From Escherichia phage vB_Eco_slurp01, in sequence record LT603033: 64,000 nucleotides of DNA; one strand, written 5' to 3'. The position numbers were made by a program, and so were the translations under genes. Under the pieces are notes generated by a model. That model had not been told where the DNA came from. It did not search any database and saw only the letters and a list, made by a program, of their open reading frames with translations. This document shows, in pieces, positions 5,677-62,771 of the stretch (position 1 is the first letter of the stretch; each line of letters opens with the position of its first letter).

Positions 5677-5868
5677 ATGTTGATTTATCAAAGTGATAAT
5701 ATTCGTGTTATGCAGCATCCCTACTTACAAATCTTTGATGTGCAGCAGTATATGGAAGGTGATGACCCAAGAACCTATGGTCGTAAGTATGATTACTTCA
5801 CTGTAAAGCAGTGTAAAAATATTAACGAAGTACGACAATTAGTTCAAGAACTTCAAAACAAAGGTTGA
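5677..5868 (+). CDS. hypothetical protein
   Basis: ATG at 5677 with AAGGA; stop TGA lies inside the downstream hairpin/-35. Confidence 0.5.
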   Translation: MLIYQSDNIRVMQHPYLQIFDVQQYMEGDDPRTYGRKYDYFTVKQCKNINEVRQLVQELQNKG

Positions 5869-5894
5869 CTTCGGTCAGCCTTTTTTGTTATAAT
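5863..5894 (+). promoter_or_regulatory. stem-loop/promoter hybrid (PeSL-like)
   Basis: GGTTGAC-TTCG-GTCAGCC hairpin with T-run, TTGACT as -35, TATAAT about 18 bp downstream. Confidence 0.6.
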
Positions 5895-5922
5895 TCTCTT
5901 AATAAATTAGAGGATTTTAATT

Positions 5923-6363
5923 ATGTATGTATATCGTTTTGAACTTAAATTTAGTTACATTGAACCTAACTTAGATCCTGCACGAACTGTAGGTCCGTTT
6001 GCACGGTATTCAACCAGATACAGTACTAAAAATGGATTTGACCGTTTGCTTATGACTACACCTTCTCAATTCCAACCTGAACCAACTGAGGATGGGATCT
6101 ATTCAATCAAAAGTGGATGGGTATTTGGCTGTCAAAGTTTGAAAGATTTGTTCAGATTCTTCACTATGGACTTGGGTAAATTGCATCGTGCTGGGTTTGC
6201 TATATCTGTATATGAAGTTCCAGACCACCATGTAGACATTGGTCGTAATCAGGTTCAGTACTATTGCGGTAGTGCTAAATTAGTTCGTATCATGTCAGTT
6301 AAGGAAGCAAAGGATGAGTTCCGACAAAGTAAAAGAGAAACACATGAGGTAATATATGGATAA
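5923..6363 (+). CDS. hypothetical protein
   Basis: RBS AGAGGA; 146 aa. Confidence 0.65.
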   Translation: MYVYRFELKFSYIEPNLDPARTVGPFARYSTRYSTKNGFDRLLMTTPSQFQPEPTEDGIYSIKSGWVFGCQSLKDLFRFFTMDLGKLHRAGFAISVYEVPDHHVDIGRNQVQYYCGSAKLVRIMSVKEAKDEFRQSKRETHEVIYG

Positions 6364-6700
6364 AACTCAAATAGAATTAAAGAAATTTGTTTCATTCTAT
6401 CTTCCTGATGACCCACGTAATTCACAAAAAGATATTGAATATTATAATATCCTATCTAAACAGTTAATGAGAAAGTTTCAACAGTGTTTAACTATATTCA
6501 ATACAGATGGAAGACGTAGATACCGAATCGTTTCAATGAATGATGAAAACGCAAATTTCTTTGATTACGATGTAGTTTTTAGAGCATATAATGATGATCG
6601 TATAAAATTAAATTATGATCAAATTATACTTGACCTGAATGTTATATGTGTTATAATCACTCACGTAGCCGAACTTAATGGTTTTAAAGAATGGTATTGA
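6356..6700 (+). CDS. hypothetical protein
   Basis: Overlapping start with GAGG RBS; 114 aa. Confidence 0.6.
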   Translation: MDKTQIELKKFVSFYLPDDPRNSQKDIEYYNILSKQLMRKFQQCLTIFNTDGRRRYRIVSMNDENANFFDYDVVFRAYNDDRIKLNYDQIILDLNVICVIITHVAELNGFKEWY

Positions 6701-6714
6701 ATAGAGGATAACAT

Positions 6715-6981
6715 ATGAAGCTTAAATTACAATATAATGGATTTACTTTACGTAATGATACTGAATTTATTAATCGTTCTCCTGGTGCTGAACTGTTTTT
6801 ACGAGAGATGAACATTCCTTTCATCATTACTACAGTGGGCGACCGTGAAGTTTTACAATATGCAGAGCATCCGATTATTGATGTTCCTTGGTACTCTGAG
6901 CATATGTACATGGATATGGCACGTCGCTACAACTGTAAGTTCGTAGTTGAAGGTGATAAAATTACAGTCGAATTTAAATAA
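6715..6981 (+). CDS. hypothetical protein
   Basis: RBS AGAGGA; 88 aa. Confidence 0.6.
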   Translation: MKLKLQYNGFTLRNDTEFINRSPGAELFLREMNIPFIITTVGDREVLQYAEHPIIDVPWYSEHMYMDMARRYNCKFVVEGDKITVEFK

Positions 6982-6993
6982 GGTAAATTAAAA

Positions 6994-7287
6994 ATGATCA
7001 GTACTTCAGTTAATGAAAGCATCGTCGCTGACGTAGAAATGGTTAAAGAATGTGCAGATGAAACTCTTCGTGATATGTACATTAATGATTTAATTACTGA
7101 ATACGGTAGTCGTGGTGTACACGAATTTATTCGTTTAAGTGGAGAGTTGATGAAAAATCGAATTCGTATGAAGCTTAACGTACATCCAAAAGCATGGGCA
7201 TTTACATTAAAATACGCAGAAGATATTGTGAATTTGCGTCGAACTGAAGTATATGAACGTTTGCACAATGGTATGTTAGATAAATGA
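6994..7287 (+). CDS. hypothetical protein
   Basis: RBS AAGG; 97 aa. Confidence 0.6.
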   Translation: MISTSVNESIVADVEMVKECADETLRDMYINDLITEYGSRGVHEFIRLSGELMKNRIRMKLNVHPKAWAFTLKYAEDIVNLRRTEVYERLHNGMLDK

Positions 7288-7339
7288 TTGTAAAATAGGA
7301 ATTCTTAAATGAATTCCTTTTTGTTTATAAGGTATAGTA

Positions 7340-7561
7340 ATGAAATATATAGTACTTGTACTGATATTATTCAGTACTGTTGTAAGTGCTAAACAAAAAG
7401 AATATATTAAATGTATAAATTATGAAGAGAAATATGTTGAAACATATAAAAAAAGTATAATTAAAAACGTTTCGATTACTAACAGAGCAACAATCATTGT
7501 ACTTAAAAATGGGTTAATTATGCTATATAAACCACACGTTAAATGTGAAATTATTAATTGA
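7340..7561 (+). CDS. small secreted protein
   Basis: Signal-like N-terminus; 73 aa. Confidence 0.55.
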   Translation: MKYIVLVLILFSTVVSAKQKEYIKCINYEEKYVETYKKSIIKNVSITNRATIIVLKNGLIMLYKPHVKCEIIN

Positions 7562-7568
7562 GGAAATT

Positions 7569-9097: not shown

Positions 9098-9104
9098 TAA
9101 AAAG

Positions 9105-9137
9105 GGGTTGACTAAGGTCAGCCCTTTGTTGTATCAT
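9105..9137 (+). promoter_or_regulatory. stem-loop/promoter hybrid (variant)
   Basis: GGGTTGAC-TAAG-GTCAGCCC hairpin, T-run, TATCAT -10. Confidence 0.5.
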
Positions 9138-9280: not shown

Positions 9281-9288
9281 CAAAATAA

Positions 9289-9319
9289 GGTTGACTTCGG
9301 TCAGCCTTTTCTTTATACT
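9289..9319 (+). promoter_or_regulatory. stem-loop/promoter hybrid (PeSL-like)
   Basis: GGTTGACTTCGGTCAGCC + TTTTC + TATACT. Confidence 0.55.
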
Positions 9320-9342: not shown

Positions 9343-10896
9343 ATGAAATCTATGGAGAGAAATCAAATGCCAAGTAATTTTACTGATAAAAATGGTGGTA
9401 ACATGGCTGGTCACTCTGATAAATGGAGTGAACGCAACCGCCGTCCAAATAGTTATCAAGCAGGTCAAGGTTCACGTGGGTCACGTAATCAAGGAACTGG
9501 TCTAGCTGGTAAAGCAAACGCAGAAGCAGGTGAAGTTAAGAGTACTGAGAACATGACTGAGCTAGAAAAGCTACGTTATGTTAATTCATTGGGACTTCTT
9601 AATGCTACACAAAAACAACGCCTAGCTGATATGGAACGTGAAGAAAAAGAAAAGTCTTCTCCTGCGAAAGAAGAACCAAAACAAGAAGCACCGAAGGCGG
9701 TTAACCCTGTCAAAGAATTGTCTGATAAGTTAGGTAAGATTTTTGCTAATAAACCACAACTTATCCAAGGTATTGTGAAAGAATTGCAATCTGTACCTAA
9801 AGAAGAATTAAAAGTCAAAGCACAAGCTGTACTTGATGCAATGAGTGGAAATACCAGTACTGAACCAACTGAAGTATTCAGTACTATAATGCGTGCACTT
9901 GAAGGTAAACCACAGGGTGACGAGACTGCACAAGAGGAAGTAAGTCTTGAAAGCGTACTTAAAACATTTGATAGTATTGGTAAAGAAGACCGTGCTAATG
10001 CTCAACAAGTTAAGAATGTACTAGCTAAGTTAGAAAACCGTCTGGAAGGTAAAGACGATAAGATTAAATTAGTATCTGATGCAGTTAACGATGCACTTAA
10101 ATCTTACGTACAAGGTGAAAAGAGTCGTTTTGTAACTGCAATGGATGCTGCATTCAATACTATGAAAAAGTATGAAGCTGATCATGGTGAGAAGGTTACA
10201 CGAGATGGTTATCTGATGCGTGATGATGAAGAAGGTGCAGTTGACCAGAAAGATGCTGAAACATCTCATGATGATTTACCTGATACTGTTGATATGGATG
10301 GTTACATTCATCGTCCAGAAATGGGAGAGTTTGGTTCTGACAAAGAAGGATTTGAACATGCAATGGCAGTGTACAAAGCTCTCGTGGACAATCCAGATTA
10401 TGCCAACCGATTTGTAGATGAGTTTGATAGTGCATGGAACAACTACAAAGACAAAGGTTATGACTTCCCTGCTGAGGCAGCATTCTTTGAACTTGGTAAA
10501 CTATTAGCTAAACATGGAATTGATGTAGGTTCTAAAGATGGTACTGATACTGATGGCATGGAAGCAGAATTGGCTAAAGATCGTGAAATGAACGACAACT
10601 CCATTCATGAACTCCAAAAGCTAATGATGTGGATATCCGATATTGGTAAAAAAGCTGGTGCTGATAATAAGAGTATCAACAAAAACATTAGTTGGATTAA
10701 AAGTAATGTTGGTAAAAATGCTCGTAAACTACAAAAAGCATGGACTGATTTAGTAAATGGTGCTGATGATGTTGACATTGAATCACCTGAAGCATACGAA
10801 TATGCATTAACTACTCTTGATAATTCCTTTAAAGATTACGATAACGGTAACGTAACTCATTGGGAAAAGGACATCATGAGCAAATACGGTAAATGA
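9343..10896 (+). CDS. large acidic protein (517 aa), possible virion internal/injected protein
   Basis: Long ORF, highly charged (K/E/D-rich), no TM segments; function is inference only. Confidence 0.6.
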   Translation: MKSMERNQMPSNFTDKNGGNMAGHSDKWSERNRRPNSYQAGQGSRGSRNQGTGLAGKANAEAGEVKSTENMTELEKLRYVNSLGLLNATQKQRLADMEREEKEKSSPAKEEPKQEAPKAVNPVKELSDKLGKIFANKPQLIQGIVKELQSVPKEELKVKAQAVLDAMSGNTSTEPTEVFSTIMRALEGKPQGDETAQEEVSLESVLKTFDSIGKEDRANAQQVKNVLAKLENRLEGKDDKIKLVSDAVNDALKSYVQGEKSRFVTAMDAAFNTMKKYEADHGEKVTRDGYLMRDDEEGAVDQKDAETSHDDLPDTVDMDGYIHRPEMGEFGSDKEGFEHAMAVYKALVDNPDYANRFVDEFDSAWNNYKDKGYDFPAEAAFFELGKLLAKHGIDVGSKDGTDTDGMEAELAKDREMNDNSIHELQKLMMWISDIGKKAGADNKSINKNISWIKSNVGKNARKLQKAWTDLVNGADDVDIESPEAYEYALTTLDNSFKDYDNGNVTHWEKDIMSKYGK

Positions 10897-10906
10897 TAAA
10901 ACTAAA

Positions 10907-10938
10907 GGTTGACTTCGGTCAGCCTTTTTTTGTAAATA
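10907..10938 (+). promoter_or_regulatory. stem-loop/promoter hybrid (PeSL-like)
   Basis: GGTTGACTTCGGTCAGCC + T-run + TAAATA. Confidence 0.55.
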
Positions 10939-10966
10939 CAAAAGAGGAATTAAGAAGAGGATTACA

Positions 10967-11981: not shown

Positions 11982-11989
11982 TAATAAAA

Positions 11990-12021
11990 GGGTTGACTTC
12001 GGTCAGCCTTTTTTGTTATGA
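11990..12021 (+). promoter_or_regulatory. stem-loop/promoter hybrid (PeSL-like)
   Basis: GGGTTGACTTCGGTCAGCC + T-run + TATGAT. Confidence 0.55.
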
Positions 12022-12050
12022 TGTTGATATTAACTACAGAGGATAAAGTA

Positions 12051-16468: not shown

Positions 16469-16562
16469 ATGGATTAAACAATGAAGAAGTGTATGATTCT
16501 TTGTTCTAATCACCATCGCATGGTACATTCTGGTAGACTATGTTTGATTGAAAGAAAAAAAA

Positions 16563-16595
16563 AGGGTTGACTTCAGTCGGCCCTTTTTGCTATAA
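16563..16595 (+). promoter_or_regulatory. stem-loop/promoter hybrid (PeSL-like)
   Basis: GGGTTGACTTCAGTCGGCCC + TTTTT + TATAAT. Confidence 0.6.
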
Positions 16596-16624
16596 TCATT
16601 TCATCGAAACGAGAGGATGAATAC

Positions 16625-17482: not shown

Positions 17483-17488
17483 CATAAA

Positions 17489-17521
17489 GGGTTGACTTCG
17501 GTCAGCCCTTTTTGCTATAAT
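17489..17521 (+). promoter_or_regulatory. stem-loop/promoter hybrid (PeSL-like)
   Basis: GGGTTGACTTCGGTCAGCCC + TTTTT + TATAAT. Confidence 0.6.
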
Positions 17522-19663: not shown

Positions 19664-19669
19664 ACAAAA

Positions 19670-19702
19670 GGGTTGACTTCGGTCAGCCCTTTTTGTTATA
19701 AT
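19670..19702 (+). promoter_or_regulatory. stem-loop/promoter hybrid (PeSL-like)
   Basis: GGGTTGACTTCGGTCAGCCC + TTTTT + TATAAT. Confidence 0.6.
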
Positions 19703-52700: not shown

Positions 52701-52705
52701 TTAAT

Positions 52706-52915: not shown

Positions 52916-52984
52916 TTTTTAGTACTGTATAATAGTTTACATGAAGTGGAGAAATAGTTCTCCCCACTAATTAAGGAATATGAA

Positions 52985-53131: not shown

Positions 53132-53212
53132 TACTTGCAATTAGTTTTTAGTACTGTATAATAGTTTACATGAAGGGGAGAAATGATTCTCCCCAAGAAC
53201 AGGAGAAATAAA

Positions 53213-53365
53213 ATGAAACAATATAATGCTCGGTTTGATGTTACTATCGGTAACGGTAAAGGTCAATTTTCTTTCAGTACTCGACGCAGTTATACAGAAA
53301 ACTTCCTGCGTAATTGTGCACTGACCGCCGCTCAAATTAAACATTATTTTCAGGCTAAAAAATGA
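53213..53365 (+). CDS. small protein (50 aa)
   Basis: RBS AGGAGAA. Confidence 0.5.
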   Translation: MKQYNARFDVTIGNGKGQFSFSTRRSYTENFLRNCALTAAQIKHYFQAKK

Positions 53366-53451
53366 AATCATTAGCTTATTACAGTTCGGCCCTGGTCGTT
53401 GCATTGATCGCGGCGTTGTTAGTAACCTATCTATTCTTTATGGTGATTTAA
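53362..53451 (+). CDS. tiny membrane peptide (29 aa)
   Basis: ATGA overlap; single hydrophobic helix. Confidence 0.3.
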   Translation: MKSLAYYSSALVVALIAALLVTYLFFMVI

Positions 53452-53589
53452 ATGAATCCTAACGGTATAATTTACAGTACTCCTAAAACGAAAGCAGACA
53501 AGGTAAACGCTAAAAAAGCGAAAGTAAAGGAGTACATCAAGCAAGGCATGACGCGAAAGGCGGCGATTCTAAAAGCTAAAAATAAATGA
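53452..53589 (+). CDS. small basic protein (45 aa)
   Basis: TAAATG junction; followed directly by hairpin/promoter element. Confidence 0.35.
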   Translation: MNPNGIIYSTPKTKADKVNAKKAKVKEYIKQGMTRKAAILKAKNK

Positions 53590-53596
53590 AAAAAGT

Positions 53597-53628
53597 GGTT
53601 GACTTCGGTCAGCCATTTTGCTATTATA
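53597..53628 (+). promoter_or_regulatory. stem-loop/promoter hybrid (PeSL-like)
   Basis: TGGTTGACTTCGGTCAGCCA + TTTTG + TATTAT. Confidence 0.55.
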
Positions 53629-53800
53629 TATTCATTGAGAGATAGCTCACTAGCCCACAGGGTGCAGGAGTGTATCTATTGTATAATGTTTGAGTACTGA
53701 AAACTATTTTTAAAAAAGTACTTGAAAACTATCTCAATTGGCGTATAATGTTTTACATCGCAAGGGGAAACGGTTTCCCCTGGTAATAAGGAAACGAATC

Positions 53801-54142
53801 ATGACTATCTCAATTGCTCAATCTAACTTTGAAAATGAAATCATCGCCCAGGTACTGCGTTTAAATGATGGTCGGGCCGAAATTAATTACGGTTTCAATT
53901 CAGGCGGTTGTGAAAACTATCAGTACTTTGTAACGGCTGATGGCGGTGTCCTGGGCATCAATACAGTTATTGTAAACATCCAAAAAATTAATTTCAATGA
54001 TCCAGACGATAGCCAGTTTTACATCACTGGCGTAGACGTGAACTATGAGGATGACTCACTAACTGATGATTACACTGGTGAGCGGTTAGAAAGTGCTTAT
54101 GGTGAAGATGATTATCAGTCAGTACCGGAAGATTTCGAATAA
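53801..54142 (+). CDS. hypothetical protein
   Basis: RBS AAGGAA; 113 aa. Confidence 0.6.
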   Translation: MTISIAQSNFENEIIAQVLRLNDGRAEINYGFNSGGCENYQYFVTADGGVLGINTVIVNIQKINFNDPDDSQFYITGVDVNYEDDSLTDDYTGERLESAYGEDDYQSVPEDFE

Positions 54143-54234
54143 TATAAAAAATAGTTTGACAATAGATTATAGTACTGTATAATAGTTTACATCAAGGGGA
54201 GAATAGTTCTCCCCACTAACAGAGAAAAAACAAA

Positions 54235-54447
54235 ATGGCTAATATCCGCACTGTACTGAAAAATGCAAAACAAGTTTTATTTTCTGATCATGATACTTTC
54301 AACAAGGATATTACTGGCGTTCGGAATATCAAAGATGTAAAAAGTGTTATGGGTATCTATTGCAATATGAAACGTGTTGGAACGTTCGGCGACAAAGTAC
54401 TATACCAGGCAGGGGATTACAATTTTACACTGACTATCATTAACTAA
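54235..54447 (+). CDS. hypothetical protein
   Basis: Promoter + GGGGAGAA-TAG-TTCTCCCC hairpin upstream; 70 aa. Confidence 0.55.
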   Translation: MANIRTVLKNAKQVLFSDHDTFNKDITGVRNIKDVKSVMGIYCNMKRVGTFGDKVLYQAGDYNFTLTIIN

Positions 54448-54530
54448 AAATATTATCACAGTACTATTGACATAGTTTGATAGTACTGACATAATAAGTT
54501 TTATCAACTACACTACTAAGGAATTAAAAA

Positions 54531-54710
54531 ATGGCTATCATCGCAAAAACTGAAATCATCGGCCTGGATTCTATCATCATGACGTTTGAAGATCAAAAAG
54601 GTATGTATGTGGTTTCCTATGGTGATTATGTTCGGGAGTATGAAACGGTAGACGAAGCCTTTGAAAGTTACATTCGCCAGGTGAATAAAGCATACGACGA
54701 CTACCGCTAA
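54531..54710 (+). CDS. small protein (59 aa)
   Basis: RBS AAGGAA; promoter TTGACA...CATAAT upstream. Confidence 0.5.
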   Translation: MAIIAKTEIIGLDSIIMTFEDQKGMYVVSYGDYVREYETVDEAFESYIRQVNKAYDDYR

Positions 54711-54809
54711 AATATATTACCAGTACTATTAAAGATATTGACAACGTTTGATAGTACTGTATAATAAGTTTTATCAACAGTAGTTAACTTAACCTAAGAG
54801 AGAAACAAA

Positions 54810-54953
54810 ATGATCGCACTGGATTCATTCATCGACGCAGTACTGGCAAAAACTGGCGAGGATCTGACCGCAGAACAATACGCAATGATCGAGCAATGCC
54901 AGCAAGACGGTAAATCGGTGAAAGATACTGTTAAGATTATCCGCAAGATGTAA
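54810..54953 (+). CDS. small protein (47 aa)
   Basis: RBS AAGAGAGA; followed by terminator hairpin. Confidence 0.45.
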   Translation: MIALDSFIDAVLAKTGEDLTAEQYAMIEQCQQDGKSVKDTVKIIRKM

Positions 54954-54959
54954 GATTAT

Positions 54960-54990
54960 AGCCCACTGGTTAACGCTGGTGGGCTTTAAT
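54960..54990 (+). terminator. intrinsic terminator-like hairpin
   Basis: AGCCCAC-TGGTTAACGC-TGGTGGGCT + TTAATT. Confidence 0.5.
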
Positions 54991-55058
54991 TCATTACCCT
55001 ATACAATGCCAGTACTAAACCGTTTATCTCCTTAGAATGCGTTACAGGACGTTTGACA

Positions 55059-55256
55059 ATGATTAGCATGAAATCAGTACAAAAACAAATAGAAACATTA
55101 TCAAAAATTAAACGTAAACAGTACTCGTTAGAATATACAATCAATGGTAACTATCATCTAATGAAAGAGAATAATTTCATTGTCATTGATGAATCATTGC
55201 AAATCATTAGTATAGTACTGAAAGCATTAATCAATGACAGAAAAAAATTAAAATAA
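55059..55256 (+). CDS. hypothetical protein
   Basis: ATG at 55059/55068; weak RBS; about 65 aa. Confidence 0.45.
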   Translation: MISMKSVQKQIETLSKIKRKQYSLEYTINGNYHLMKENNFIVIDESLQIISIVLKALINDRKKLK

Positions 55257-55587
55257 TATATTGACAATATCCTCCAGTACTGGCATAATACTTACATCAA
55301 GACGAGAACGTCACTAACCCATAGGGTGCACAAATGTAACTGTATAATATTGATCAAAAAATGATCTGATCAATACTTGATCAATTTGCGTAAAGTAGTA
55401 TAATTCTATGCAGTTGGTTAGACGAAAGGTTATGATTAGTAGTGCAAGTGTATAAAAATTTTCATGGTGTATCGTTTCGCACATATGGGGATGAATATGT
55501 GGTATCATGTGGATTGGAAAAAGTAAGAACAAGTAATATTATTGTCGCATTACAGTACTATAGTATTTTTATAATGAGGTTAAAATA
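55257..55587. promoter_or_regulatory. 330-bp non-coding control region with tandem promoters and TTGATCAA/GATC cluster
   Basis: TTGACA...CATAAT; conserved AACCCATAGGGTGCA motif; TATAAT then TTGATCAA x3 (4 GATC in about 35 bp). Confidence 0.5.
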
Positions 55588-55845
55588 ATGGCTGTAGGAT
55601 TCGCGAAAGATGGGGCCGAACAAGACGAGATTAACGCAGTGATTCAGGCCGCCGTTAACCACGCTAGAAAGCAAATTAACGCACAAATAGAATCACTGAT
55701 ACATTGCCTCGACTGCGGCGATATAATCCCTGAGAAACGACGCCAGGCCGTTAAGGGGTGTAAGTACTGCATAACTTGCCAGGAGGATCATGATAGTACT
55801 TTTAAACGTCCCCCGCGTAATTGTTGGCATAGATCTATGAGATAA
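55588..55845 (+). CDS. DksA/TraR-family C4 zinc-finger protein
   Basis: C-x2-C-G-x-x-I-P-E-x-R-R...C-x2-C pattern (CLDCGDIIPEKRRQAVKGCKYCITC); RBS GAGG. Confidence 0.6.
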   Translation: MAVGFAKDGAEQDEINAVIQAAVNHARKQINAQIESLIHCLDCGDIIPEKRRQAVKGCKYCITCQEDHDSTFKRPPRNCWHRSMR

Positions 55846-55920
55846 AAAGTATTGACAGTACTATCCAGTAGTGTTATAGTACTTACATCAAGGGGAAACA
55901 TCTTCCCCTACTAAGAGGAA

Positions 55921-56115
55921 ATGAAAATGGAAAACTTATCAAGTATTTTAGTACAAGATGATTTCGGTAATCCTGGAAGTGCTATCATTGTTCGGGGTAA
56001 TAAAGCAACATTTGTTATTGCTGGTGGACCTGTACAGCGTAGCATTAAAAATAATGCTGTTACCATTAATAATGTACGCTATCGCTTAGATAAAGAATTG
56101 ATTCATAAACTGTAA
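55921..56115 (+). CDS. hypothetical protein
   Basis: RBS AAGAGGAA; 64 aa. Confidence 0.6.
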   Translation: MKMENLSSILVQDDFGNPGSAIIVRGNKATFVIAGGPVQRSIKNNAVTINNVRYRLDKELIHKL

Positions 56116-56142
56116 TATTAATTTAATAGAGGATAACAATAA

Positions 56143-56466
56143 ATGTACATTCATACTACTATCACAAAGGAAGTCCGTTGCCAGTTCGAAAGTATTCCGG
56201 GCGTATGTTTCATCACTGGTACGTTTTCCCCTGGTGATCGTGATAATCCAGTACTGTTACAATTACGCCATCCATCATGGGATAAAGCATTTGATCTACC
56301 GTTGAATGAATTCGCAACTACTGCTGAAAAGTACATTAAAAATATTCGCGAGAATGATCGACTATTCATTAATGCTTTTAGTGATTCCGCGTTAAGCGAG
56401 ATCCACGGCGTATTGGTTGCAATCATGGAATCAATGGAGAAAACTAAATTCAAACAAGGTGAATAA
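56143..56466 (+). CDS. hypothetical protein
   Basis: RBS AGAGGA; 107 aa. Confidence 0.65.
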   Translation: MYIHTTITKEVRCQFESIPGVCFITGTFSPGDRDNPVLLQLRHPSWDKAFDLPLNEFATTAEKYIKNIRENDRLFINAFSDSALSEIHGVLVAIMESMEKTKFKQGE

Positions 56467-56549
56467 AAACTATTGACAAGATAATCTAGTACTGTATAAT
56501 AAGTTACATGAAGGGGAGAAATGATTCTCCCCACTAAGAGGAAAGAAAA

Positions 56550-56762
56550 ATGCAAGGTCAACTAATCGTTCGTAAATGGTCTGATACTAACGAAAAACCG
56601 TGGGATGTACAATACATCGGACCGGATGGGGTATCACGTTATCAGCCAGGCGTAACGCATAGTACTGAGCAATATGCCGCCGCTCACCGCGAACGCCTGT
56701 TAGAATCCATGAAACAGGGATTCTGTGAAAAATTCATTCAAGATCATTGGCTGAAAGATTAA
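56550..56762 (+). CDS. hypothetical protein
   Basis: RBS AAGAGGAA; 70 aa. Confidence 0.6.
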   Translation: MQGQLIVRKWSDTNEKPWDVQYIGPDGVSRYQPGVTHSTEQYAAAHRERLLESMKQGFCEKFIQDHWLKD

Positions 56763-56779
56763 TAGAAGGAGTACAGCTT

Positions 56780-56872
56780 ATGCAAATGAATCCGATGATT
56801 ATTGTTTTAGCTGTACTTATGATCATTCATGCAATAGTAGAAGTATTAACGCAATCAGGAGTAATAAAATGA
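56780..56872 (+). CDS. tiny membrane peptide (30 aa)
   Basis: Strong RBS AAGGAG; hydrophobic. Confidence 0.4.
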   Translation: MQMNPMIIVLAVLMIIHAIVEVLTQSGVIK

Positions 56873-57042
56873 TTCAAGTAGAATTATCAGTACTAAAAGA
56901 TCTGTTTTATCGGATTGGTACTACTGGCGAATATCCGAAGGGTGATAATGCAAAACTTTACGTATCACTCGACTTATGGCAACGCGAACAATTAGCAACG
57001 GCCTGGCGTAAAGGCAAAGCAGATAGCGAGGTGAAAGCATGA
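56869..57042 (+). CDS. small protein (57 aa)
   Basis: ATGA overlap. Confidence 0.45.
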   Translation: MIQVELSVLKDLFYRIGTTGEYPKGDNAKLYVSLDLWQREQLATAWRKGKADSEVKA

Positions 57043-57188
57043 AAGAATTCTTATTTGAAGTAGTGTTTCAAGGTGTCGGTAATAACCAACTGATTCGCTC
57101 AAGTGGTTACAATGTTAACCAGGCATGGAATAACATTAAACAAATGTACCCGAACGCTATCACATATCGCAACCCGAAAGAAGTTTAA
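57039..57188 (+). CDS. small protein (49 aa)
   Basis: ATGA overlap; followed by hairpin/promoter element. Confidence 0.45.
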   Translation: MKEFLFEVVFQGVGNNQLIRSSGYNVNQAWNNIKQMYPNAITYRNPKEV

Positions 57189-57202
57189 AAATAATTGAAA
57201 AA

Positions 57203-57235
57203 GGGATTGACTCCGGTCAGTCCCTTTGCTATTAT
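57203..57235 (+). promoter_or_regulatory. stem-loop/promoter hybrid (variant)
   Basis: GGGATTGAC-TCCG-GTCAGTCCC + TTTGC + TATTAT. Confidence 0.55.
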
Positions 57236-57362
57236 ATACGCATAGAAACAAATCAGCCCACCGGGTGCATAAATGTATCTATTATATGCTGGTGGCTAGT
57301 ACTGAAAACTATTTTTAAAAAGTACTTGCATTGTACTTAGAATCAAGTATAATGTTTTACAT

Positions 57363-57440
57363 CAGGACGGGGAACGAAACAAGTAACCCCGTTAAGTAGT
57401 CCAGGAGTAAGACATAAGAAAACCTCCCCTGATAAAATAG
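57363..57440 (+). ncRNA. conserved roughly 80-nt structured element (copy 2)
   Basis: Near-identical to 47967..48046; between tandem promoters. Confidence 0.35.
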
Positions 57441-57502
57441 TTTGACAATAGAAAGTAAACGAGTATAATACTTACATCAACCACTGATAAGGAAACATAA
57501 AA

Positions 57503-57778
57503 ATGCGGATTCTACTGACAGCTAACGAAATCGAACAAGTACTGACTACTAACCTGGAAGACTGGAAACGTGAAGCAGATATCCAGGCGGTTCAACGGCT
57601 TAACGATGAGTTAACGCCGGATGACTTAAGCAAGATTGTAGATCCTCAATTCTACGAAGATATCCACGACACCGCGTTAAGCGTCGAGGATGTACTAGAT
57701 AAGCACTACATTGATATTGATTTGCAGGTTTACGGTCGTAAAAACTTTATCACTATTCACGACATTTACAATAATTAA
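57503..57778 (+). CDS. hypothetical protein
   Basis: RBS AAGGAAA; 91 aa. Confidence 0.6.
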   Translation: MRILLTANEIEQVLTTNLEDWKREADIQAVQRLNDELTPDDLSKIVDPQFYEDIHDTALSVEDVLDKHYIDIDLQVYGRKNFITIHDIYNN

Positions 57779-57865
57779 GTATTGACAAAGTATCTTAGTA
57801 CTGTATAATAGTTTACATCAAGCGAGGGGAATGGTTCCCCTCCTAACTAAAAGAGAGAAATAAAA

Positions 57866-58048
57866 ATGGCTAAGTGCACTATCTGCAAGAAAGAAATAGT
57901 ATTAGTTCCAAGTGCCCGTGAACGTGCCGCTCGGTTCGGTGGCAAAGCGTCAGACTATACAAAAATGTTTACTACCCATACAGCTTGCCAGGTAGCAAAA
58001 CGTTCACAAGAAAGCGTAGAATTAATGCGTAAACTTTCCAAAAAATAA
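57866..58048 (+). CDS. small Cys-containing protein, possible zinc ribbon
   Basis: CTIC...HTAC pattern; 60 aa. Confidence 0.55.
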   Translation: MAKCTICKKEIVLVPSARERAARFGGKASDYTKMFTTHTACQVAKRSQESVELMRKLSKK

Positions 58049-58136
58049 GTATTGACAAAGTATCTTAGTACTGTATAATAGTTTACATCAAGTGAGGGGA
58101 AACGGTTCCCCTCCTAACAAAGAGAGAGAAATAAAA

Positions 58137-58460
58137 ATGGCTATGATCCTTGCCCAGAAAGTGGAACTGAAAATTGTAACCTCCTTTGACATTAATGTTA
58201 ATCGGTGGACTGATTCACACGGCAATACTTACCACTCTTGCTACGTGTCTGCGTTAATTGGCGACCGCTGGGAAGACCTGGGACACGAAACCTTTACATA
58301 CGGTTACGGTACACAAGGCGAATACACGGGCTTGGAGATCATTAAAGAAACCGTTATAGGTTTCAACCCGAAAGAAAAAGTTATTCACCGCATCGAGGAA
58401 GAGATCAACAAAGAAATAACAGTTCGCTACCACGATGTAAAACGTAAGAAAGACATGTAA
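58137..58460 (+). CDS. hypothetical protein (paralog of 51703..52026)
   Basis: Shared motifs as listed for 51703 ORF. Confidence 0.65.
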   Translation: MAMILAQKVELKIVTSFDINVNRWTDSHGNTYHSCYVSALIGDRWEDLGHETFTYGYGTQGEYTGLEIIKETVIGFNPKEKVIHRIEEEINKEITVRYHDVKRKKDM

Positions 58461-58555
58461 TAGAATCCATTTAAAGTACTATTTGACATTGCCCAGATAG
58501 TACTTTATAATAGACTCTAACTTGTAGTACTAACTCAACTAATAGGATGTATACC

Positions 58556-58951
58556 ATGATTACTAAATTCTACGCTACCCGTGAAGCTGCCCGTATTGTT
58601 GCACGCGAGGAAGGAGCAGCATTTAAAGACATGGGCAAAGATGCACCGAAAGGTCAACGCTGGGCCGTACAGTTCAAAGAAATCTCTGATATCGTGAATT
58701 CACCGGAGCCAGTACTAACAGCAGCAGAACTAAAACGAGCGGATTTACTGGCGGCAGTACTTAACGCACAAGATGAATTTATCGCTGATTCTGATATCAA
58801 AGTACAGACAAACCATACCGCTTGGACTCACGCGGATCACCTGGCAAACCTTAAGCGTCCAAGTGAACTGGTTCGCAACCAGAAAGAGATCCGACACGAC
58901 CGTAAGGGTAATCGTGTAACAGTATACAGTAAACGCCGCCAGGTTATCTAA
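58556..58951 (+). CDS. hypothetical protein (paralog of 47099..47365)
   Basis: Shared motifs FYATREAARI...FKDMG...RKGNRVTVY. Confidence 0.65.
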   Translation: MITKFYATREAARIVAREEGAAFKDMGKDAPKGQRWAVQFKEISDIVNSPEPVLTAAELKRADLLAAVLNAQDEFIADSDIKVQTNHTAWTHADHLANLKRPSELVRNQKEIRHDRKGNRVTVYSKRRQVI

Positions 58952-58973
58952 TAACTTGCAGTACTAACAACAC

Positions 58974-58998
58974 GGCGGGATCAGTTCCCGCCTTTTTT
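58974..58998 (+). terminator. intrinsic terminator
   Basis: GGCGGGA-TCAG-TTCCCGCC + TTTTTT. Confidence 0.7.
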
Positions 58999-59013
58999 AT
59001 AGGATAAACTAAA

Positions 59014-59268
59014 ATGATTAAGGTACAACTATCTAAAGATAATATCTTGCGGGTACACTATAAAGCACCACAGAGAATCATCACAAAGGCCGTACAGCTT
59101 GCTAATGAGTTTATTAATGGTAACCTATTACCAAGGAAGTTAAGCAACGGAAAACTGCGTGTAATCGATGTAGATACTAACAACAGAATAGTAATTGAGA
59201 ACACAGGAAAGATAAACCTATATGAACACCAACAATATAATAAGAAAATAAAACTAATATCACGTTGA
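59014..59268 (+). CDS. hypothetical protein
   Basis: RBS AGGA; 84 aa. Confidence 0.6.
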   Translation: MIKVQLSKDNILRVHYKAPQRIITKAVQLANEFINGNLLPRKLSNGKLRVIDVDTNNRIVIENTGKINLYEHQQYNKKIKLISR

Positions 59269-59321
59269 CAGTACTCAATTGTTTTAGTATTATGTACACA
59301 TACCAACACGGGAGAAACAAA

Positions 59322-59540
59322 ATGAAATTATCTAAAATCGAAAAGAAAACTATTGATGAAGCAGTTAAGCACGGTTATACCTTTCGTAATGATTCACATT
59401 TTACCAATTTTCAACAAGGCCAAAGGACTATTAAAAAACTAATTGACAAAGGTTTATTAGTTAAAGTAGATAACGGTAACGGCATTGAGTATCAGCCAAC
59501 CCAAGACACATTATCTTTAAAGAAATATGCAATTATCTAA
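59322..59540 (+). CDS. hypothetical protein
   Basis: Promoter TTGACAGTACTCAATTGTTTTAGTATTAT upstream; RBS GGGAGAAA. Confidence 0.55.
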   Translation: MKLSKIEKKTIDEAVKHGYTFRNDSHFTNFQQGQRTIKKLIDKGLLVKVDNGNGIEYQPTQDTLSLKKYAII

Positions 59541-59597
59541 TTGACAGTACTCAAATGTTTTAGTACTATATGTACATACCAACACGGGGAAAACAAA

Positions 59598-59840
59598 ATG
59601 ATTACTTTAGAAAAACGTATCAAAGAAACTACATCGCTGGTGGAACTGTTAACAGTACTGAAATGCCGTACTACTCGGTTTAGTACACCGGACTTTATTA
59701 ATATGGTTGATGTTAACGGTCGTTATCGCATTGCAGTAGAACAAGGAACAGCGAAAGTATTCAGTACTAAAAACACTAAGGAAGTGATTCACGCTGTAAG
59801 TGTTAAAAAAGTAGTTGCCATTGATAGTAAAGTACTGTAA
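59598..59840 (+). CDS. hypothetical protein
   Basis: Near-duplicate promoter/leader of previous gene; RBS GGGGAAAA. Confidence 0.55.
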   Translation: MITLEKRIKETTSLVELLTVLKCRTTRFSTPDFINMVDVNGRYRIAVEQGTAKVFSTKNTKEVIHAVSVKKVVAIDSKVL

Positions 59841-59871
59841 GATAGTTTCATTAACTCAAGGAGAACATGCA

Positions 59872-60456
59872 ATGCGTAATTATACTAAATTCATCCGTAC
59901 ACTGTCAGAAATGGAAACCAACAAAGAGATCCTTTCAGCTTGTCGGTTAGCTGGTCTGGAGATCATCGGTGCGGGTTCTTCCCGTATTGTATTCGCTTTA
60001 AATGATCGGTTAGTGATCAAGGTCGCGAATTGTGATGCGGGTGTAGAACAAAATGAAACTGAATGTAAGGTATGGAATTTTTTAGATTATGACCGCCCTC
60101 AATTGAAACAGTACTTTGCAAAGGTGCATATGCATTTATGCGATCCTGATAATATGTTTATCGTTATGGATCGGTTGAGTACTGCAAGTAAAGGCAGTGT
60201 GAAGCACGTTAACGCGTGCAACGAATTAAAGTACAATATTAAACGTAATGCCATTGAACGCCAGCACCGCTTTGCTGATGCACTACAACACGTCGATGAT
60301 ACATTATCAACACTAACGATAAGAGATATCAGAAAACAGAATATCGGCCAGGATCGTAATGGCCTTATTAAAGTACTTGATTACGGTTTAACCCGCAATA
60401 TCTGGAATCAGTACTATAAAAAGCGTGATGTAAAAGCCGTAACTATAACACGATAA
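59872..60456 (+). CDS. kinase-like fold protein (candidate atypical Ser/Thr kinase)
   Basis: RBS AAGGAG; IGAGSSRIV...VIKVA (Gly-loop + Lys), IRDIRKQNIG (catalytic-loop-like), VLDYG (DFG-like). Confidence 0.55.
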   Translation: MRNYTKFIRTLSEMETNKEILSACRLAGLEIIGAGSSRIVFALNDRLVIKVANCDAGVEQNETECKVWNFLDYDRPQLKQYFAKVHMHLCDPDNMFIVMDRLSTASKGSVKHVNACNELKYNIKRNAIERQHRFADALQHVDDTLSTLTIRDIRKQNIGQDRNGLIKVLDYGLTRNIWNQYYKKRDVKAVTITR

Positions 60457-60470
60457 AAAAGATTAAAAAA

Positions 60471-60503
60471 GGGATTGACTCCGGTCAGTCCCTTTGCTAA
60501 TAT
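60471..60503 (+). promoter_or_regulatory. stem-loop/promoter hybrid (variant)
   Basis: GGGATTGACTCCGGTCAGTCCC + TTTGC + TAATAT. Confidence 0.55.
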
Positions 60504-60687
60504 ATATTCATTGAGAGATAACTCACTGACCCACAGGGTGCATAAGTGTATCTATTATATAAGTATTCAGTACTGAAAACTATTTTAAAGTATTTGATAA
60601 AAAGTACTTGCATTGTACTTAGAATCAAGTATAATGTTTTATATCGAGAGGGGGAAATGGTTCTCCCTGGCAATAAGGAATAAAATC

Positions 60688-60909
60688 ATGACTACAATGA
60701 CTTGCATTTACGCTTCCAATCTTCTGAATGATGCGGCCTTTAATGTTGATTCAGAATATCAATGTTATCGGGATGAAAATAAAAAAGTTTTTGTAGTTGA
60801 TAATAATGGTTTCCATATTGAATTACAATCCGGTTTCACTGGTGTTGATGGTAAATCAGTATGGGGCGTACAGGATGATAAAGGCACATATCATTTTAAA
60901 CGTAATTAA
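60688..60909 (+). CDS. hypothetical protein
   Basis: RBS AAGGAA; 73 aa. Confidence 0.6.
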   Translation: MTTMTCIYASNLLNDAAFNVDSEYQCYRDENKKVFVVDNNGFHIELQSGFTGVDGKSVWGVQDDKGTYHFKRN

Positions 60910-60993
60910 GTATTGACAAAGTATCTTAGTACTGTATAATAGTTTACATCAAGGGGAGAATAGTTCTCCCCGATACTAAAAGGAAACAAAATT

Positions 60994-61266
60994 ATGTCCA
61001 GCTACTCCGCTACTATGATCATTAAAGATATGAACGGTAATCCTACTTCTGCTGGTGGATCATTTGGAAACATTAACTTAGATGGTCGGTTATCAATTGA
61101 ATCAGCCATCAATGCAGCGAAAGAAGTTTTTAAGAATGAATGTACTGTTAGTAAGCTGGATTATATGGGATTCGCTATCGAGAAAACTACTCGTTTTGTG
61201 AACTACAAAAATCCACTGATGATTGATACTAACCTGAAAGCTAACGAAGTGGGGTACTTATTATGA
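60994..61266 (+). CDS. hypothetical protein
   Basis: RBS AAAGGAAA; 90 aa. Confidence 0.6.
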   Translation: MSSYSATMIIKDMNGNPTSAGGSFGNINLDGRLSIESAINAAKEVFKNECTVSKLDYMGFAIEKTTRFVNYKNPLMIDTNLKANEVGYLL

Positions 61267-61454
61267 CAGTTGAAGAAGTTAAAAAAGTACTGGCAGTACT
61301 ACGCTATCATAACCATTGCAAGGTTAAGAATGATCCTGATTATGTTGATTCATCCCTGGAGGAAGACACATTAAACGCAATAAGCCATATGCAAACATTA
61401 GCAAAGCGTATGACCGAAAAGAATAGACCGGACTATATCGGAAATAAAATTTAA
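61263..61454 (+). CDS. hypothetical protein
   Basis: ATGA overlap; 63 aa. Confidence 0.55.
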   Translation: MTVEEVKKVLAVLRYHNHCKVKNDPDYVDSSLEEDTLNAISHMQTLAKRMTEKNRPDYIGNKI

Positions 61455-61540
61455 AAAGTACTTGCATTGTAGTTAGATTAACGTATAATGTTTTACATAG
61501 AGCGGGGGAATAGTTCTCCCGCCAGTCCGGGAGATACACC

Positions 61541-61807
61541 ATGAACACTATCGAAATCACTATCAATGCACACGTATACGACAACGTAGTACTGCAAACT
61601 ACTATGACCGCTAATGATACCAGTACTTTGCGGAATACCGTTGTAAGTGCTGTATGTGCTGCAATCGGTGATGTAGCCCTGGAAAATGCAGAACACATCA
61701 ACAACGGTTTCACTATGTGCAAACGTGATAACGCAAAACATATCATCTTAGAAGGTTACGGCGGTGTAGAATATAATCTTTATATGAAAAAAGTACTTGC
61801 AAAGTAA
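61541..61807 (+). CDS. hypothetical protein
   Basis: Promoter/hairpin/RBS module; 88 aa. Confidence 0.6.
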   Translation: MNTIEITINAHVYDNVVLQTTMTANDTSTLRNTVVSAVCAAIGDVALENAEHINNGFTMCKRDNAKHIILEGYGGVEYNLYMKKVLAK

Positions 61808-61872
61808 CTAAAACAAAGTATAATGTTTTGCATAGGGGGAGATATCCTCCCCCACTAATAAGGAGTACTAAA

Positions 61873-62097
61873 ATGGCTAACTTTGATGAACTGATGCGGG
61901 AAGTAGCTAACCTGGCAGAAGAGAAGAAATCATTCGATTCTATCTATAACACCGCTTACAGTGATTCAGTACTGGCATGTACTCAGGATCAAAAAGATGA
62001 ACTAATCGCCACATATCATGAAGCATGGAAGTACTACCGCCAATGGGAGAAAGAAGAAAGCGAGTCTACCATCAACGGCATCAATAATCTAATCTAA
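61873..62097 (+). CDS. hypothetical protein
   Basis: RBS AAGGAG; 74 aa. Confidence 0.6.
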   Translation: MANFDELMREVANLAEEKKSFDSIYNTAYSDSVLACTQDQKDELIATYHEAWKYYRQWEKEESESTINGINNLI

Positions 62098-62172
62098 AGT
62101 TTTATTTCAGTACTATTGACATAGCTTGATAGTACTGATATGATAACTTTACTAACTACAAGGGGAAACATC

Positions 62173-62430
62173 ATGGAACAATTCACACAATATCGGGTAA
62201 ATCCTCAAGCTATGGCCTACGTAGAAGACCATAAAACGTTACCAGTACTGCAACCAGTTAAAGGCCATATCTATCGTGCGATGGCGTGGAGTACTGCCCA
62301 GGATGGCTATAAAACCGTTGCCGTTGGTATGTACTGCGGTAATGGTGAATGGTTTGATCCAAATAATCCGGTAGCAATTGACAGTACTGAAAAAATGAAA
62401 TGGGCCGACTACATCGAAGATATTTCATAA
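62173..62430 (+). CDS. hypothetical protein
   Basis: Promoter TTGACA...; RBS AAGGGGAAA; 85 aa. Confidence 0.6.
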   Translation: MEQFTQYRVNPQAMAYVEDHKTLPVLQPVKGHIYRAMAWSTAQDGYKTVAVGMYCGNGEWFDPNNPVAIDSTEKMKWADYIEDIS

Positions 62431-62520
62431 AAACTATTTGACAGTACTAACCAGTAATGTATAATGTTTTACATAGAGCGGGGGAATAGTTCTCCCGCCA
62501 ATAGTTTGGAGTAAAACATT

Positions 62521-62721
62521 ATGTCTATCGCTCTCGCCCTGGTTGAAGTACTGAAAGAAGCTAAAGCCAACCTTATCGATGTACAGATTAAGGAATTGCA
62601 AAATGGTTTAATCGGCTGTACTTGTACCGCTGGTGGAGCGGCAGACTATCGAGAACACGAATCACTAGAATCGTTGGTCCGGTATCTTACAATCATCGTA
62701 GAAGATTGGAGAATCATCTAA
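62521..62721 (+). CDS. hypothetical protein
   Basis: Hairpin GCGGGGGAA-TAG-TTCTCCCGC upstream; 66 aa. Confidence 0.55.
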   Translation: MSIALALVEVLKEAKANLIDVQIKELQNGLIGCTCTAGGAADYREHESLESLVRYLTIIVEDWRII

Positions 62722-62738
62722 CAAAAAAGAATAAAAAA

Positions 62739-62771
62739 GGGATTGACTCCGGTCAGTCCCTTTGCTATTAT
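62739..62771 (+). promoter_or_regulatory. stem-loop/promoter hybrid (variant)
   Basis: GGGATTGACTCCGGTCAGTCCC + TTTGC + TATTAT. Confidence 0.55.

Follow-up and report, generated by a model that had tools for sequence, protein, structure and literature searches.

Here we analyse a repeated hairpin-promoter element in a 64,000-nucleotide stretch of the genome of Escherichia phage vB_Eco_slurp01 (sequence record LT603033), referred to below as the window. The element is present in twelve copies, which are very probably composite cassettes of the promoter-early-stem-loop (PeSL) type, in the subclass defined by a stem-loop that overlaps the -35 hexamer, residing in a RaK2-like jumbo coliphage (Asteriusvirus). 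Genomes of Asteriusvirus (Escherichia phages 121Q, PBECO4, G17, E9.1, JP4 and others) match the window at 96-99% identity; these phages are RaK2-related jumbo coliphages with genomes of 350-380 kb. The PeSL was described by Arbiol et al. 2010 (PMC2839356) as combining a strong sigma70-like promoter, AT-rich on its upstream side, with a transcription-terminating stem-loop, located between an upstream stop codon and the Shine-Dalgarno sequence (SD) and ATG of the downstream gene, and concentrated in hyperplastic regions. Five subclasses were distinguished by the position of the stem-loop, one of them overlapping the -35, and for the PeSLs of phages RB49 and phi1 both promoter and terminator activity were shown, together with mini-circles arising from PeSL-PeSL recombination.

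The 18-mer GGTTGACTTCGGTCAGCC, allowing up to three mismatches, has exactly 12 matches in the window, all of them on the + strand and all intergenic, compared with a mean of 0.01 in dinucleotide-preserving shuffles, and the 22-nt variant GGGATTGACTCCGGTCAGTCCC has three exact occurrences where none is expected. A stem-agnostic scan (hairpin of at least 7 pairs, TTGNNN in the 5' arm, -10 at 16-18 bp) returns 13 sites against 0.43 expected, of which 11 belong to this hybrid family; the other two are a hybrid of another kind (62116) and a probable chance match. Chance origin of the repeats is ruled out by these counts. The scan result also indicates that the twelve copies listed in the earlier sequence-only reading are complete for this hybrid family, and their coordinates agree with our re-scan to within 1-2 nt, an offset that arises because an extra outer G is counted or not.

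All copies follow a common layout of about 40 bp: an A-run, G(G)GTTGAC, a 4-nt loop, GTCAGC(C)C, a T-run, usually TGn, and a TATAAT-like hexamer. RNA folds of the + strand range over all copies from -12.4 to -19.5 kcal/mol (z -4.3 to -6.7), and the complementary strand folds about 4-6 kcal/mol more weakly because the U.G wobble turns into a C.A mismatch; the U.G pair makes the hairpin strand-specific. The elements are confined to two + strand arrays of small genes of mostly unknown function, a left block (~4-20.5 kb; eight copies) and a right block (44-64 kb; four copies), while the minus strand block between them (24-42 kb) contains zero copies. Both element-bearing blocks are hyperplastic, with relatives covering just 38-90% of them, and in 121Q (348 kb) all seven exact 18-mers fall in the region homologous to the window. 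The whole window has no Rfam match at gathering score, and the 44-64 kb part gives only chance-level matches in E-value mode; a tRNA scan of the window found none.

The promoter half of the element is built into the hairpin. TTGACT, as the -35, lies within the 5' stem arm, and a TAnnnT hexamer follows after a 17-18 bp spacer in 11 of the 12 copies, which is the geometry of the sigma70-type promoter that had been proposed from the letters of the window. The hybrid promoters score 10-11 of 12 consensus positions. TG precedes the -10 in five of the seven left-block hybrid promoters scored by the promoter scan, and direct reading of the flanks gives TGn in ten of the twelve copies (exceptions 9106 and 9289). 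Behind each of the eight left copies, a ribosome-binding site (RBS) and an ATG follow 25-40 nt downstream, and no other promoter lies in the gap. The GenBank record of fHe-Yen9-03 annotates -35 and -10 signals at that phage's own copy. The best evidence against an accidental promoter half is the contrast between collections of exact 18-mers: among IMG/VR viral contigs there are 52 unique sites, with TAnnnT at a spacer of 16-18 in 46 and TGn in 40, whereas 185,579 bacterial and archaeal genomes contain 50 unique sites, with TAnnnT at that spacer in three and TGn in none. About half of the bacterial and archaeal sites are coding or GC-rich chance matches, and about half are ordinary terminators. 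A -10 that is common at phage 18-mers and rare at bacterial ones is thus not a by-product of the hairpin.

The terminator half consists of a GC-rich hairpin and a U-tract, as in Rho-independent terminators, and is marginal in three right-hand copies with a TCCG loop. A-run and T-run flanks are hallmarks of terminators. Within 8 nt after the 18-mer there are 4-7 T, with 5-7 T in nine copies, but in the TCCG variants only CCTTTG; the T-run attributed earlier to the whole family is short in these three, which have 3 consecutive T only and are predicted to be better promoters than terminators. The 3' arm, which has no role in the spacer of a sigma70 promoter, is conserved despite a variable loop (TTCG, TAAG, TTCA, TCCG, TTTG, TACG, TTTA), and the 90 hybrid sites in IMG/VR have 30 different tetraloops, with TTCG accounting for half. 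An arm conserved without a promoter role next to a freely varying loop is an argument for terminator function. All stem substitutions seen keep the pairing: the right-hand variant has A-U for G-C; copy 16565, ELP-22, Turkey3 and SD-15 have U.G for U-A; and 121Q (GTCAACC, in the orthologue of copy 10907) and Turkey3 have U-A for U.G. The compensatory change in the TCCG variant, cited in the sequence-only reading as a sign of selection on structure, is real, but it is one event common to three copies and thinner evidence for selection than was implied; covariation as a whole appears supportive of the hairpin, not decisive. Public annotations are split, giving the hairpins as terminators in G17 (by ARNold) and UE-S1 and as promoter signals in fHe-Yen9-03. 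In the supplement of the CBB paper, GGGTTGACTTCGGTCAGCCC is given three times as a terminator (Torf515/518/520) and is absent from the RpoD-like promoters listed there.

The closest counterparts are the PeSLs of nt-1 and KVP40, for which the text of Comeau, Arbiol & Krisch 2014 (PMC4122927) gives the consensus A3-4 G3-loop-C3 T3-4 and TTGYVH-N17-TAWWAT, and describes PeSLs adjoining indels between close relatives. In the PeSL-rich part of the nt-1 genome, intergenic regions at 44.6, 50.5, 54.9 and 55.5 kb contain AAAAAGGGTTGACAGATGTCAGCCCTTTTTTGTATCAT, AAAAGGGTTGCTTCGGCAGCCCTTTTTTGTTATTCT and AAAAGGGTTGCACTATGCAGCCCTTTTTAGTATTAT; nt-1 also carries GGGTTGAC-AGAT-GTCAGCCC, and KVP40 (loci L116 and L136) carries GGGTTGAC-AGAT/GCTT-GTCAGCCC hybrids of the GGTTGAC-N4-GTCAGCC form. 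From the consensus in the text of that paper, we infer that these sites are the published PeSLs. Like the window elements, they comprise A3-5, G3, TTGNNN in the 5' arm, a short loop, the complementary arm, C3, a T-run and TAWWAT at N17, are near-identical in sequence, and lie between small ORFs (open reading frames) of unknown function; nt-1 also has a similar initial transcribed sequence (...ACATCGAAACGA...). They differ in that the window phage is a RaK2-like jumbo phage and not a member of the Straboviridae, in that nt-1 uses several stems (TTGAC, TTGC, TTGCA) whereas one stem with a cUUCGg loop dominates the window, and in that four window copies lead into a conserved leader with a second promoter behind it and not into a gene.

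The RB49 and phi1 PeSLs resemble the window elements in the composite sigma70-like promoter, the AT-rich upstream region, the G/C-clamped stem-loop, the intergenic clustering in hyperplastic regions, and the deletions through recombination between neighbouring copies. Their stem-loop is commonest between -35 and -10 or over the -10, however, and their stems are of the GGGG...CCCC kind without the TTGAC-in-stem design; their activities and mini-circles were shown experimentally, whereas those of the window elements are predicted. As for bacterial Rho-independent terminators of the cUUCGg type, some 20-25 bacterial genomes carry the identical 18-mer between an A-run and a T-run as a terminator-like hairpin, but a -10 at the right spacing is rare there and TGn absent, as noted above.

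Compared with the definition of 2010, the window elements contain a sigma70-like promoter with A/T-rich upstream sequence and a stable, G/C-clamped stem-loop with the permitted -35 overlap. The eight left copies lie between an upstream stop codon and a downstream SD and ATG, while the four right copies lead to a leader. The elements are repeated in hyperplastic regions of small ORFs, bound indels (including as half-elements), and resemble the nt-1/KVP40 cassettes in sequence. The sequence-only reading had matched them to the PeSLs of T4-type phages: the definition and the nt-1/KVP40 sequence match bear this out, but the phage itself is not T4-type (Straboviridae) but a RaK2-like Asteriusvirus. 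Searchable literature contains no description of the element sequence or of PeSLs in RaK2-like jumbo phages; the descriptions found are the two defining papers of the Krisch group in Genome Biology and Evolution, and the term appears once in a T4-like phage paper. Promoters and terminators are not discussed in the RaK2 paper, and the CBB paper treats the hairpins solely as terminators.

Comparison of gene content shows that the elements mark insertion boundaries, a check that the sequence-only reading had called for. The window was aligned with eight relatives. At three places where the window has two elements (9106/9289, 10907/11991 and 17490/19671), UE-S1 has one. The cassettes between these pairs are 183 bp with one tiny ORF, 1084 bp with three ORFs, and 2181 bp with a 79-aa ORF and a 628-aa ORF (an endonuclease, HNH or homing, by annotation in relatives). 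At all three, the left flank in UE-S1 corresponds to the sequence upstream of the window's left copy and the right flank to that downstream of the right copy, which places the crossover inside the element. In Turkey3, a 780-bp three-ORF cassette replaces the 183-bp cassette between the same two elements, and JP4 has an extra ORF at 17490 whose left junction is a degraded half-element, AAGGATTCACTTC.

Endonuclease genes are associated with two of the hairpins. An intact HNH gene lies directly upstream of hairpin 16565 in JP4 and is lacking in 121Q, G17 and UE-S1, and the window retains an 87-bp remnant (16469-16556) consisting of the 5' start and 3' end of this gene. Ahead of 19671, 121Q, ELP-22, JP4 and Turkey3 have a different sequence in place of the endonuclease-gene cassette and SD-15 lacks it, always with a right breakpoint 5-22 nt ahead of the hairpin; for hairpins 16565 and 19671 together, the insertion, replacement or deletion of endonuclease genes takes place 4-22 nt upstream. 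Overall, about 7 of the 12 differences in gene content have an element at one end or both, compared with about 8 of 35 gene junctions that bear one (binomial P ~0.009; P ~0.003 for events with an element at both ends), figures to be read with the reservation that the events are not fully independent and that endonuclease genes are an alternative cause for some. These alignments support a connection between the elements and gene shuffling. A miniature inverted-repeat transposable element or other transposon was considered and rejected: there is no transposase and no target duplication, and a crossover inside the repeat fits homologous recombination.

Table 1. Hybrid elements and conserved leaders in the window (start, first position of the 18-mer; energy, predicted fold of the + strand in kcal/mol).
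Feature	Start	Span	Strand	Sequence features	Energy	Surroundings
Element 1	5863	5857..5894	+	A-run, GGTTGAC-TTCG-GTCAGCC, T6, TGT, TATAAT (TTGACT-18-TATAAT)	-13.9	RBS, then ATG of ORF 5923-6363
Element 2	9106	9099..9137	+	GGGGTTGAC-TAAG-GTCAGCCCC, loop TAAG, -10 TATCAT	-17.0	Left border of 183-bp mini-cassette (absent in UE-S1, expanded in Turkey3)
Element 3	9289	9283..9319	+	Spacer 17, -10 TATACT	-12.4	Right border of 183-bp cassette; upstream of ORF 9343-10896
Element 4	10907	10901..10938	+	Good hairpin, T7, poor -10 TAAATA; given this -10, probably mainly a terminator	-13.3	Left border of 1084-bp three-ORF cassette
Element 5	11991	11984..12022	+	-10 TATGAT with TG	-14.8	Right border of three-ORF cassette; upstream of ORF 12018/12051-12692 (protein kinase annotation in relatives)
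Element 6	16565	16556..16596	+	TTCA loop, GTCGGCC (U-A to U.G), TGC-TATAAT	-17.3	Upstream of denV (16625-17059); abutted by the HNH gene remnant
Element 7	17490	17483..17521	+	TGC-TATAAT	-18.3	Left border of 2.18-kb cassette
Element 8	19671	19664..19702	+	TGT-TATAAT	-19.1	Right border of variable endonuclease-gene cassette; upstream of P-loop ATPase-like ORF 19731-20501
Element 9	53597	53590..53627	+	AGTGGTTGAC-TTCG-GTCAGCCATT, spacer 17, TGC-TATTAT	-15.9	Followed by conserved leader instead of gene
Element 10	57205	57198..57235	+	Right-hand variant GGGATTGAC-TCCG-GTCAGTCCC, 3 T, TGC-TATTAT	-19.5	ARNold terminator annotation in G17
Element 11	60473	60466..60503	+	Right-hand variant, -10 TAATAT		
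Element 12	62741	62734..62771	+	Right-hand variant, -10 TATTAT		
Leader behind element 9		53628..53700	+	CTAGCCCACAGGGTGC...GTGTATCTAT		Second promoter ~53712-53760
Leader behind element 10		57236..57305	+	Motif at 57257		
Leader behind element 11		60504..60590	+	Motif at 60530		
Leader behind element 12		62772..62870	+	Motif at 62793		

Established here are the anatomy of the elements, their predicted fold energies, their places in the genome, their association with indels and a design identical to that of the nt-1/KVP40 cassettes; we infer termination, initiation, early timing and the mechanism of recombination. In the proposed mechanism, RNA polymerase arriving from the upstream gene would transcribe the A-run, G(G)GUUGAC-UUCG-GUCAGC(C)C and the U-run, and stop; the hairpin, with its hyperstable cUUCGg tetraloop and one U.G pair, would also cap the 3' end of the mRNA. 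Host sigma70 holoenzyme would re-initiate using the A-run (as a proximal UP-like element), TTGACT (-35), TGn (extended -10) and TATAAT/TATTAT (-10), with a start about 7 nt past the -10, so that the new transcript would lack the hairpin. A small accessory gene or gene group would in this way become an insulated early unit. At the DNA level, repeats of 40-60 bp would provide the homology to delete, insert or swap the intervening cassettes. It had been suggested that every copy ends transcription of the preceding gene and starts it anew for the following one; this suits the eight left copies, except for the poor -10 at 10907, but not the four right copies, which are followed by the leader and second promoter and three of which have only 3 T.

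Several observations weigh against the PeSL reading. Promoter and terminator activity are predictions, and experimental support is confined to the RB49/phi1 PeSLs, which have a different sequence. A sigma70-like factor is encoded by relatives, and the form of polymerase that uses the promoters is uncertain. Copy 10907 lacks an acceptable -10 (TAAATA), and termination may be weak in the TCCG variants, with just 3 consecutive T, and in copy 9106, with TTTGTTG. Independent stem substitutions are few, mostly transitions and often pairing-neutral anyway, and covariation is statistically weak. The four right-hand copies have no SD and ATG behind them, unlike the canonical PeSL layout. Among the gene-content events, 5 of 12 have no element at either end (7040-7552; 10255-10551, inside an ORF; 15537-15825; 17028-17063; and the tandem paralogues at 20567-20698), and several indels involve HNH or homing endonuclease genes, which can explain presence and absence without PeSL-PeSL recombination.

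These last two observations, together with the annotated HNH or homing endonuclease ORFs directly upstream of 16565 (in JP4) and of 19671 (in the window, E9.1, ELP-22 and JP4), which account for several presence/absence or replacement events, could suggest that the elements are passive landmarks and that the indels come from homing endonuclease genes and from selection for intergenic insertion sites. We consider this unlikely. The three element-to-element events each leave one element, and two of them (9106/9289 and 10907/11991) involve no endonuclease gene; the cassette with the extra ORF in JP4 retains a half-element at its junction; the second promoter repeat family in 44-64 kb, described below, also bounds indels; and recombination between flanking PeSLs has been demonstrated experimentally in RB49/phi1 (PMC2839356).

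Two further alternatives concern one half of the element each. If the copies were plain Rho-independent terminators, TTGAC and the AT-rich hexamer would be incidental and no transcription would start there, in line with several public annotations and the CBB paper, which give the hairpins solely as terminators, with the identical, terminator-like 18-mer that genomes of Acinetobacter, Exiguobacterium, Vibrio and Bacteroidetes carry and that has no -10 there, and with copy 10907. It is difficult to reconcile with the -10 and TGn counts at phage and bacterial 18-mers, with the fixed 17-18 bp spacing of the hexamer in all window copies but one, with the RBS and ATG that follow the eight left copies without an intervening promoter, and with the TCCG copies, in which the T-run is too short for a dedicated terminator and the promoter geometry is perfect; we regard it as improbable. 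Slightly less probable still is that the copies are promoters with a DNA-level operator, where a dimeric regulator of phage or host origin bound to TTGAC-N4-GTCA shuts off early transcription and the RNA hairpin is irrelevant. An inverted repeat over the -35 is a classic operator position, the elements are limited to one gene class in an early-type region, and the GTCAACC variant of 121Q is a perfect palindrome. The common form is nevertheless imperfect as DNA (T opposite G) and fully paired only as + strand RNA, and GTCGGCC and GTTAGCC worsen the DNA symmetry while RNA pairing is kept via G.U. The outer stem varies in compensatory pairs (GG/CC, GGGA/TCCC, GTGG/CCAT), leaving no fixed recognition sequence, the A-run and T-run flanks are typical of terminators, and the same design is present in phages of unrelated hosts, one of them Gram-positive, for which a common specific repressor is unlikely.

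The four right-hand copies head a composite unit, in the order hybrid element, conserved stretch of ~60-100 nt (CTAGCCCACAGGGTGCA..GTGTATCTAT), second promoter (AAAAAGTACTTGCA-N17-GTATAATGTTTTACAT), G-rich leader hairpin and RBS. Given this placement, the predicted transcripts from these copies open with a conserved untranslated leader and not with a gene. The leader unit contains no ORF, lies ~25-30 nt downstream of strong promoters and has the form CTAACCCAYAGGGTGC-N4-6-RTSYRTCTAT, with CCCAYAGGGTGC as the motif segment. The motif is found on the + strand at 47768, 53654, 55318, 57257, 60530 and 62793 and on the minus strand at ~49365, 47836, 45842 and 45627, and thus behind six further strong promoters between 45.6 and 62.8 kb on both strands; the 47768(+) and 47836(-) copies face each other as a convergent promoter pair. 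It is conserved in RaK2 and other jumbo contigs and not elsewhere: a scan of IMG/VR with the leader 14-mer gives 115 matches, of which three lie behind a promoter, all in jumbo contigs, and the remainder are chance matches. A structured RNA was considered for the leader and rejected, as RNAalifold with 4 and 21 homologues returns nothing but a CCC/GGG hairpin of 4 bp that lacks compensatory pairs; folds of single sequences (z -0.2 to -2.8) have no common architecture, and the leader has no Rfam match. The leader unit may serve as a signal for antitermination or processing, or as a site in the DNA.

A second family of promoter repeats, far larger, has at least 30 copies in 44000-64000 (e.g. 46219, 46679, 47360, 48975, 51062, 53709, 57313, 60595, 61449 and 63292). 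Its members consist of an A-run with GTACTTGCA (or TATTGACA), N17, and GTATAAT with GTTTTACAT, behind which a G-rich leader hairpin (GGGGAGAA..TTCTCCCC) lies just ahead of the RBS, an arrangement that gives nearly every small ORF its own copy. Repeats of this family bound indels relative to CRJP21 and G17 (window 52970/53126 and 61006/60908). In megablast, 44-64 kb also matches ~160 other coliphage records, including Phapecoctavirus and Justusliebigvirus.

Beyond Asteriusvirus, the exact 18-mer hybrid is present in RaK2-like jumbo phages of Escherichia, Salmonella, Klebsiella, Erwinia, Pectobacterium, Serratia and Yersinia, in KVP40-like Vibrio phages, in Aeromonas phage 65, and in a 152-kb contig resembling Cronobacter phage CR9. 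Brochothrix phage A9 (NC_015253, ~29.7 kb; Herelleviridae, Gram-positive host) has two copies of the identical hybrid, GGTTGACTTCGGTCAGCC with CTTTTGTTATTAT, both intergenic and co-oriented with the genes. A 118.8-kb contig with several hybrids (L011) has no relative in the phage collection. The functions of the 18-mer (TTGAC, its complement, the G/C clamp and cUUCGg) leave it nearly fixed, and convergence is therefore as plausible as exchange; the common initial transcribed sequence (..ACATCGAAACGA..) hints at common descent or exchange among the Gram-negative phages.

Two additional readings are put forward jointly and tentatively, as an unlikely pair. One is a pan-phage cassette, in which AAAGGGTTGAC-N4-GTCAGCCCTTTTGnTATWAT would be common, through exchange or strong convergence, to RaK2-like jumbo phages, KVP40-like T4 relatives, the CR9-like contig and the Gram-positive Herelleviridae phage. 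The other is that the RaK2-like leader acts as a cis antitermination or processing signal: a clade-specific CTAACCCAYAGGGTGC-N5-GTGTATCTAT at about +25 to +55, launched by a subset of promoters, could allow transcripts to pass the terminators embedded in other cassettes.

If the twelve copies are PeSL-type cassettes, PeSLs extend from the T4-like phages to the RaK2/121Q jumbo group, in which the same hairpins are currently annotated as terminators only or promoters only. The kind of cassette was already known (2010, 2014); what is new is a wider host range than reported and a comparative confirmation of the shuffling role. The cassettes offer a simple account of how small genes may be gained and lost in the accessory early regions of 350-kb genomes with their neighbours undisturbed, and would help to model operons in, and to annotate, those Asteriusvirus genomes that have been proposed for therapy. 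They would also provide a compact (~40 bp) insulated terminator-promoter part, and engineered insertions are predicted to be tolerated just upstream of the hairpin. That phages of Gram-negative and of Gram-positive hosts carry an identical cassette suggests a near-optimal solution; the -35, its complement and the cUUCGg loop leave almost no free positions, a point of interest for promoter-terminator design.

Genes of the left block include denV and, by annotation of their counterparts in relatives, a T7 0.7-like protein kinase and HNH/homing endonucleases. At 17028-17063, the window is short by ~390 bp relative to G17, UE-S1, E9.1, ELP-22, JP4 and 121Q, with no repeat element at the breakpoint; denV is shortened (144 aa vs 516 bp, ~171 aa) and the next small ORF (121Q gp218) is gone. 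At copy 10907, positions 10925-10940 read GTAAATAC in place of a -10, which is nearer the ATAAATA late-type motif reported for CBB/GAP32 than a sigma70 -10.

The middle block contains, on the minus strand of 24000-42000, a run of repeated genes of ~1.2 kb with conserved 5' ends, annotated as 'regulator of chromosome condensation' (RCC1-like) in relatives and differing in copy number in JP4. A family of tandem ORFs of 60-70 aa, whose starts are conserved (..AGGTACTAATATGCAYAAAGAATACTAC..), follows at 42100-44130. Where the right-hand block begins, an ORF-poor stretch contains a 60-bp sequence repeated three times in tandem, together with arrayed 8-bp units (GGATGGCT / AGACGGCT / AAACGGCT), at 44303-44509 and 45305-45432; these look like candidate iterons or origin-type repeats.

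The palindrome AGTACT occurs 284 times in the whole window where ~22-24 occurrences are expected (13-fold; the next palindrome is 2.1-fold), and several GC-rich palindromes have zero occurrences. Intergenic sequence contains 7.7 occurrences per kb and coding sequence 3.5 per kb, the latter in all three frames, and the extended form (C)AGTACT(G) makes up ~45% of the occurrences. The excess, of which a literature search found no description, points to DNA-level selection for an unknown site. The different hybrid returned by the stem-agnostic scan, at 62100-62150, has a stem made of AGTACT motifs, with the -35 inside the stem (TCAGTACTATTGACATAGCTTGATAGTACTGA and TATGAT).

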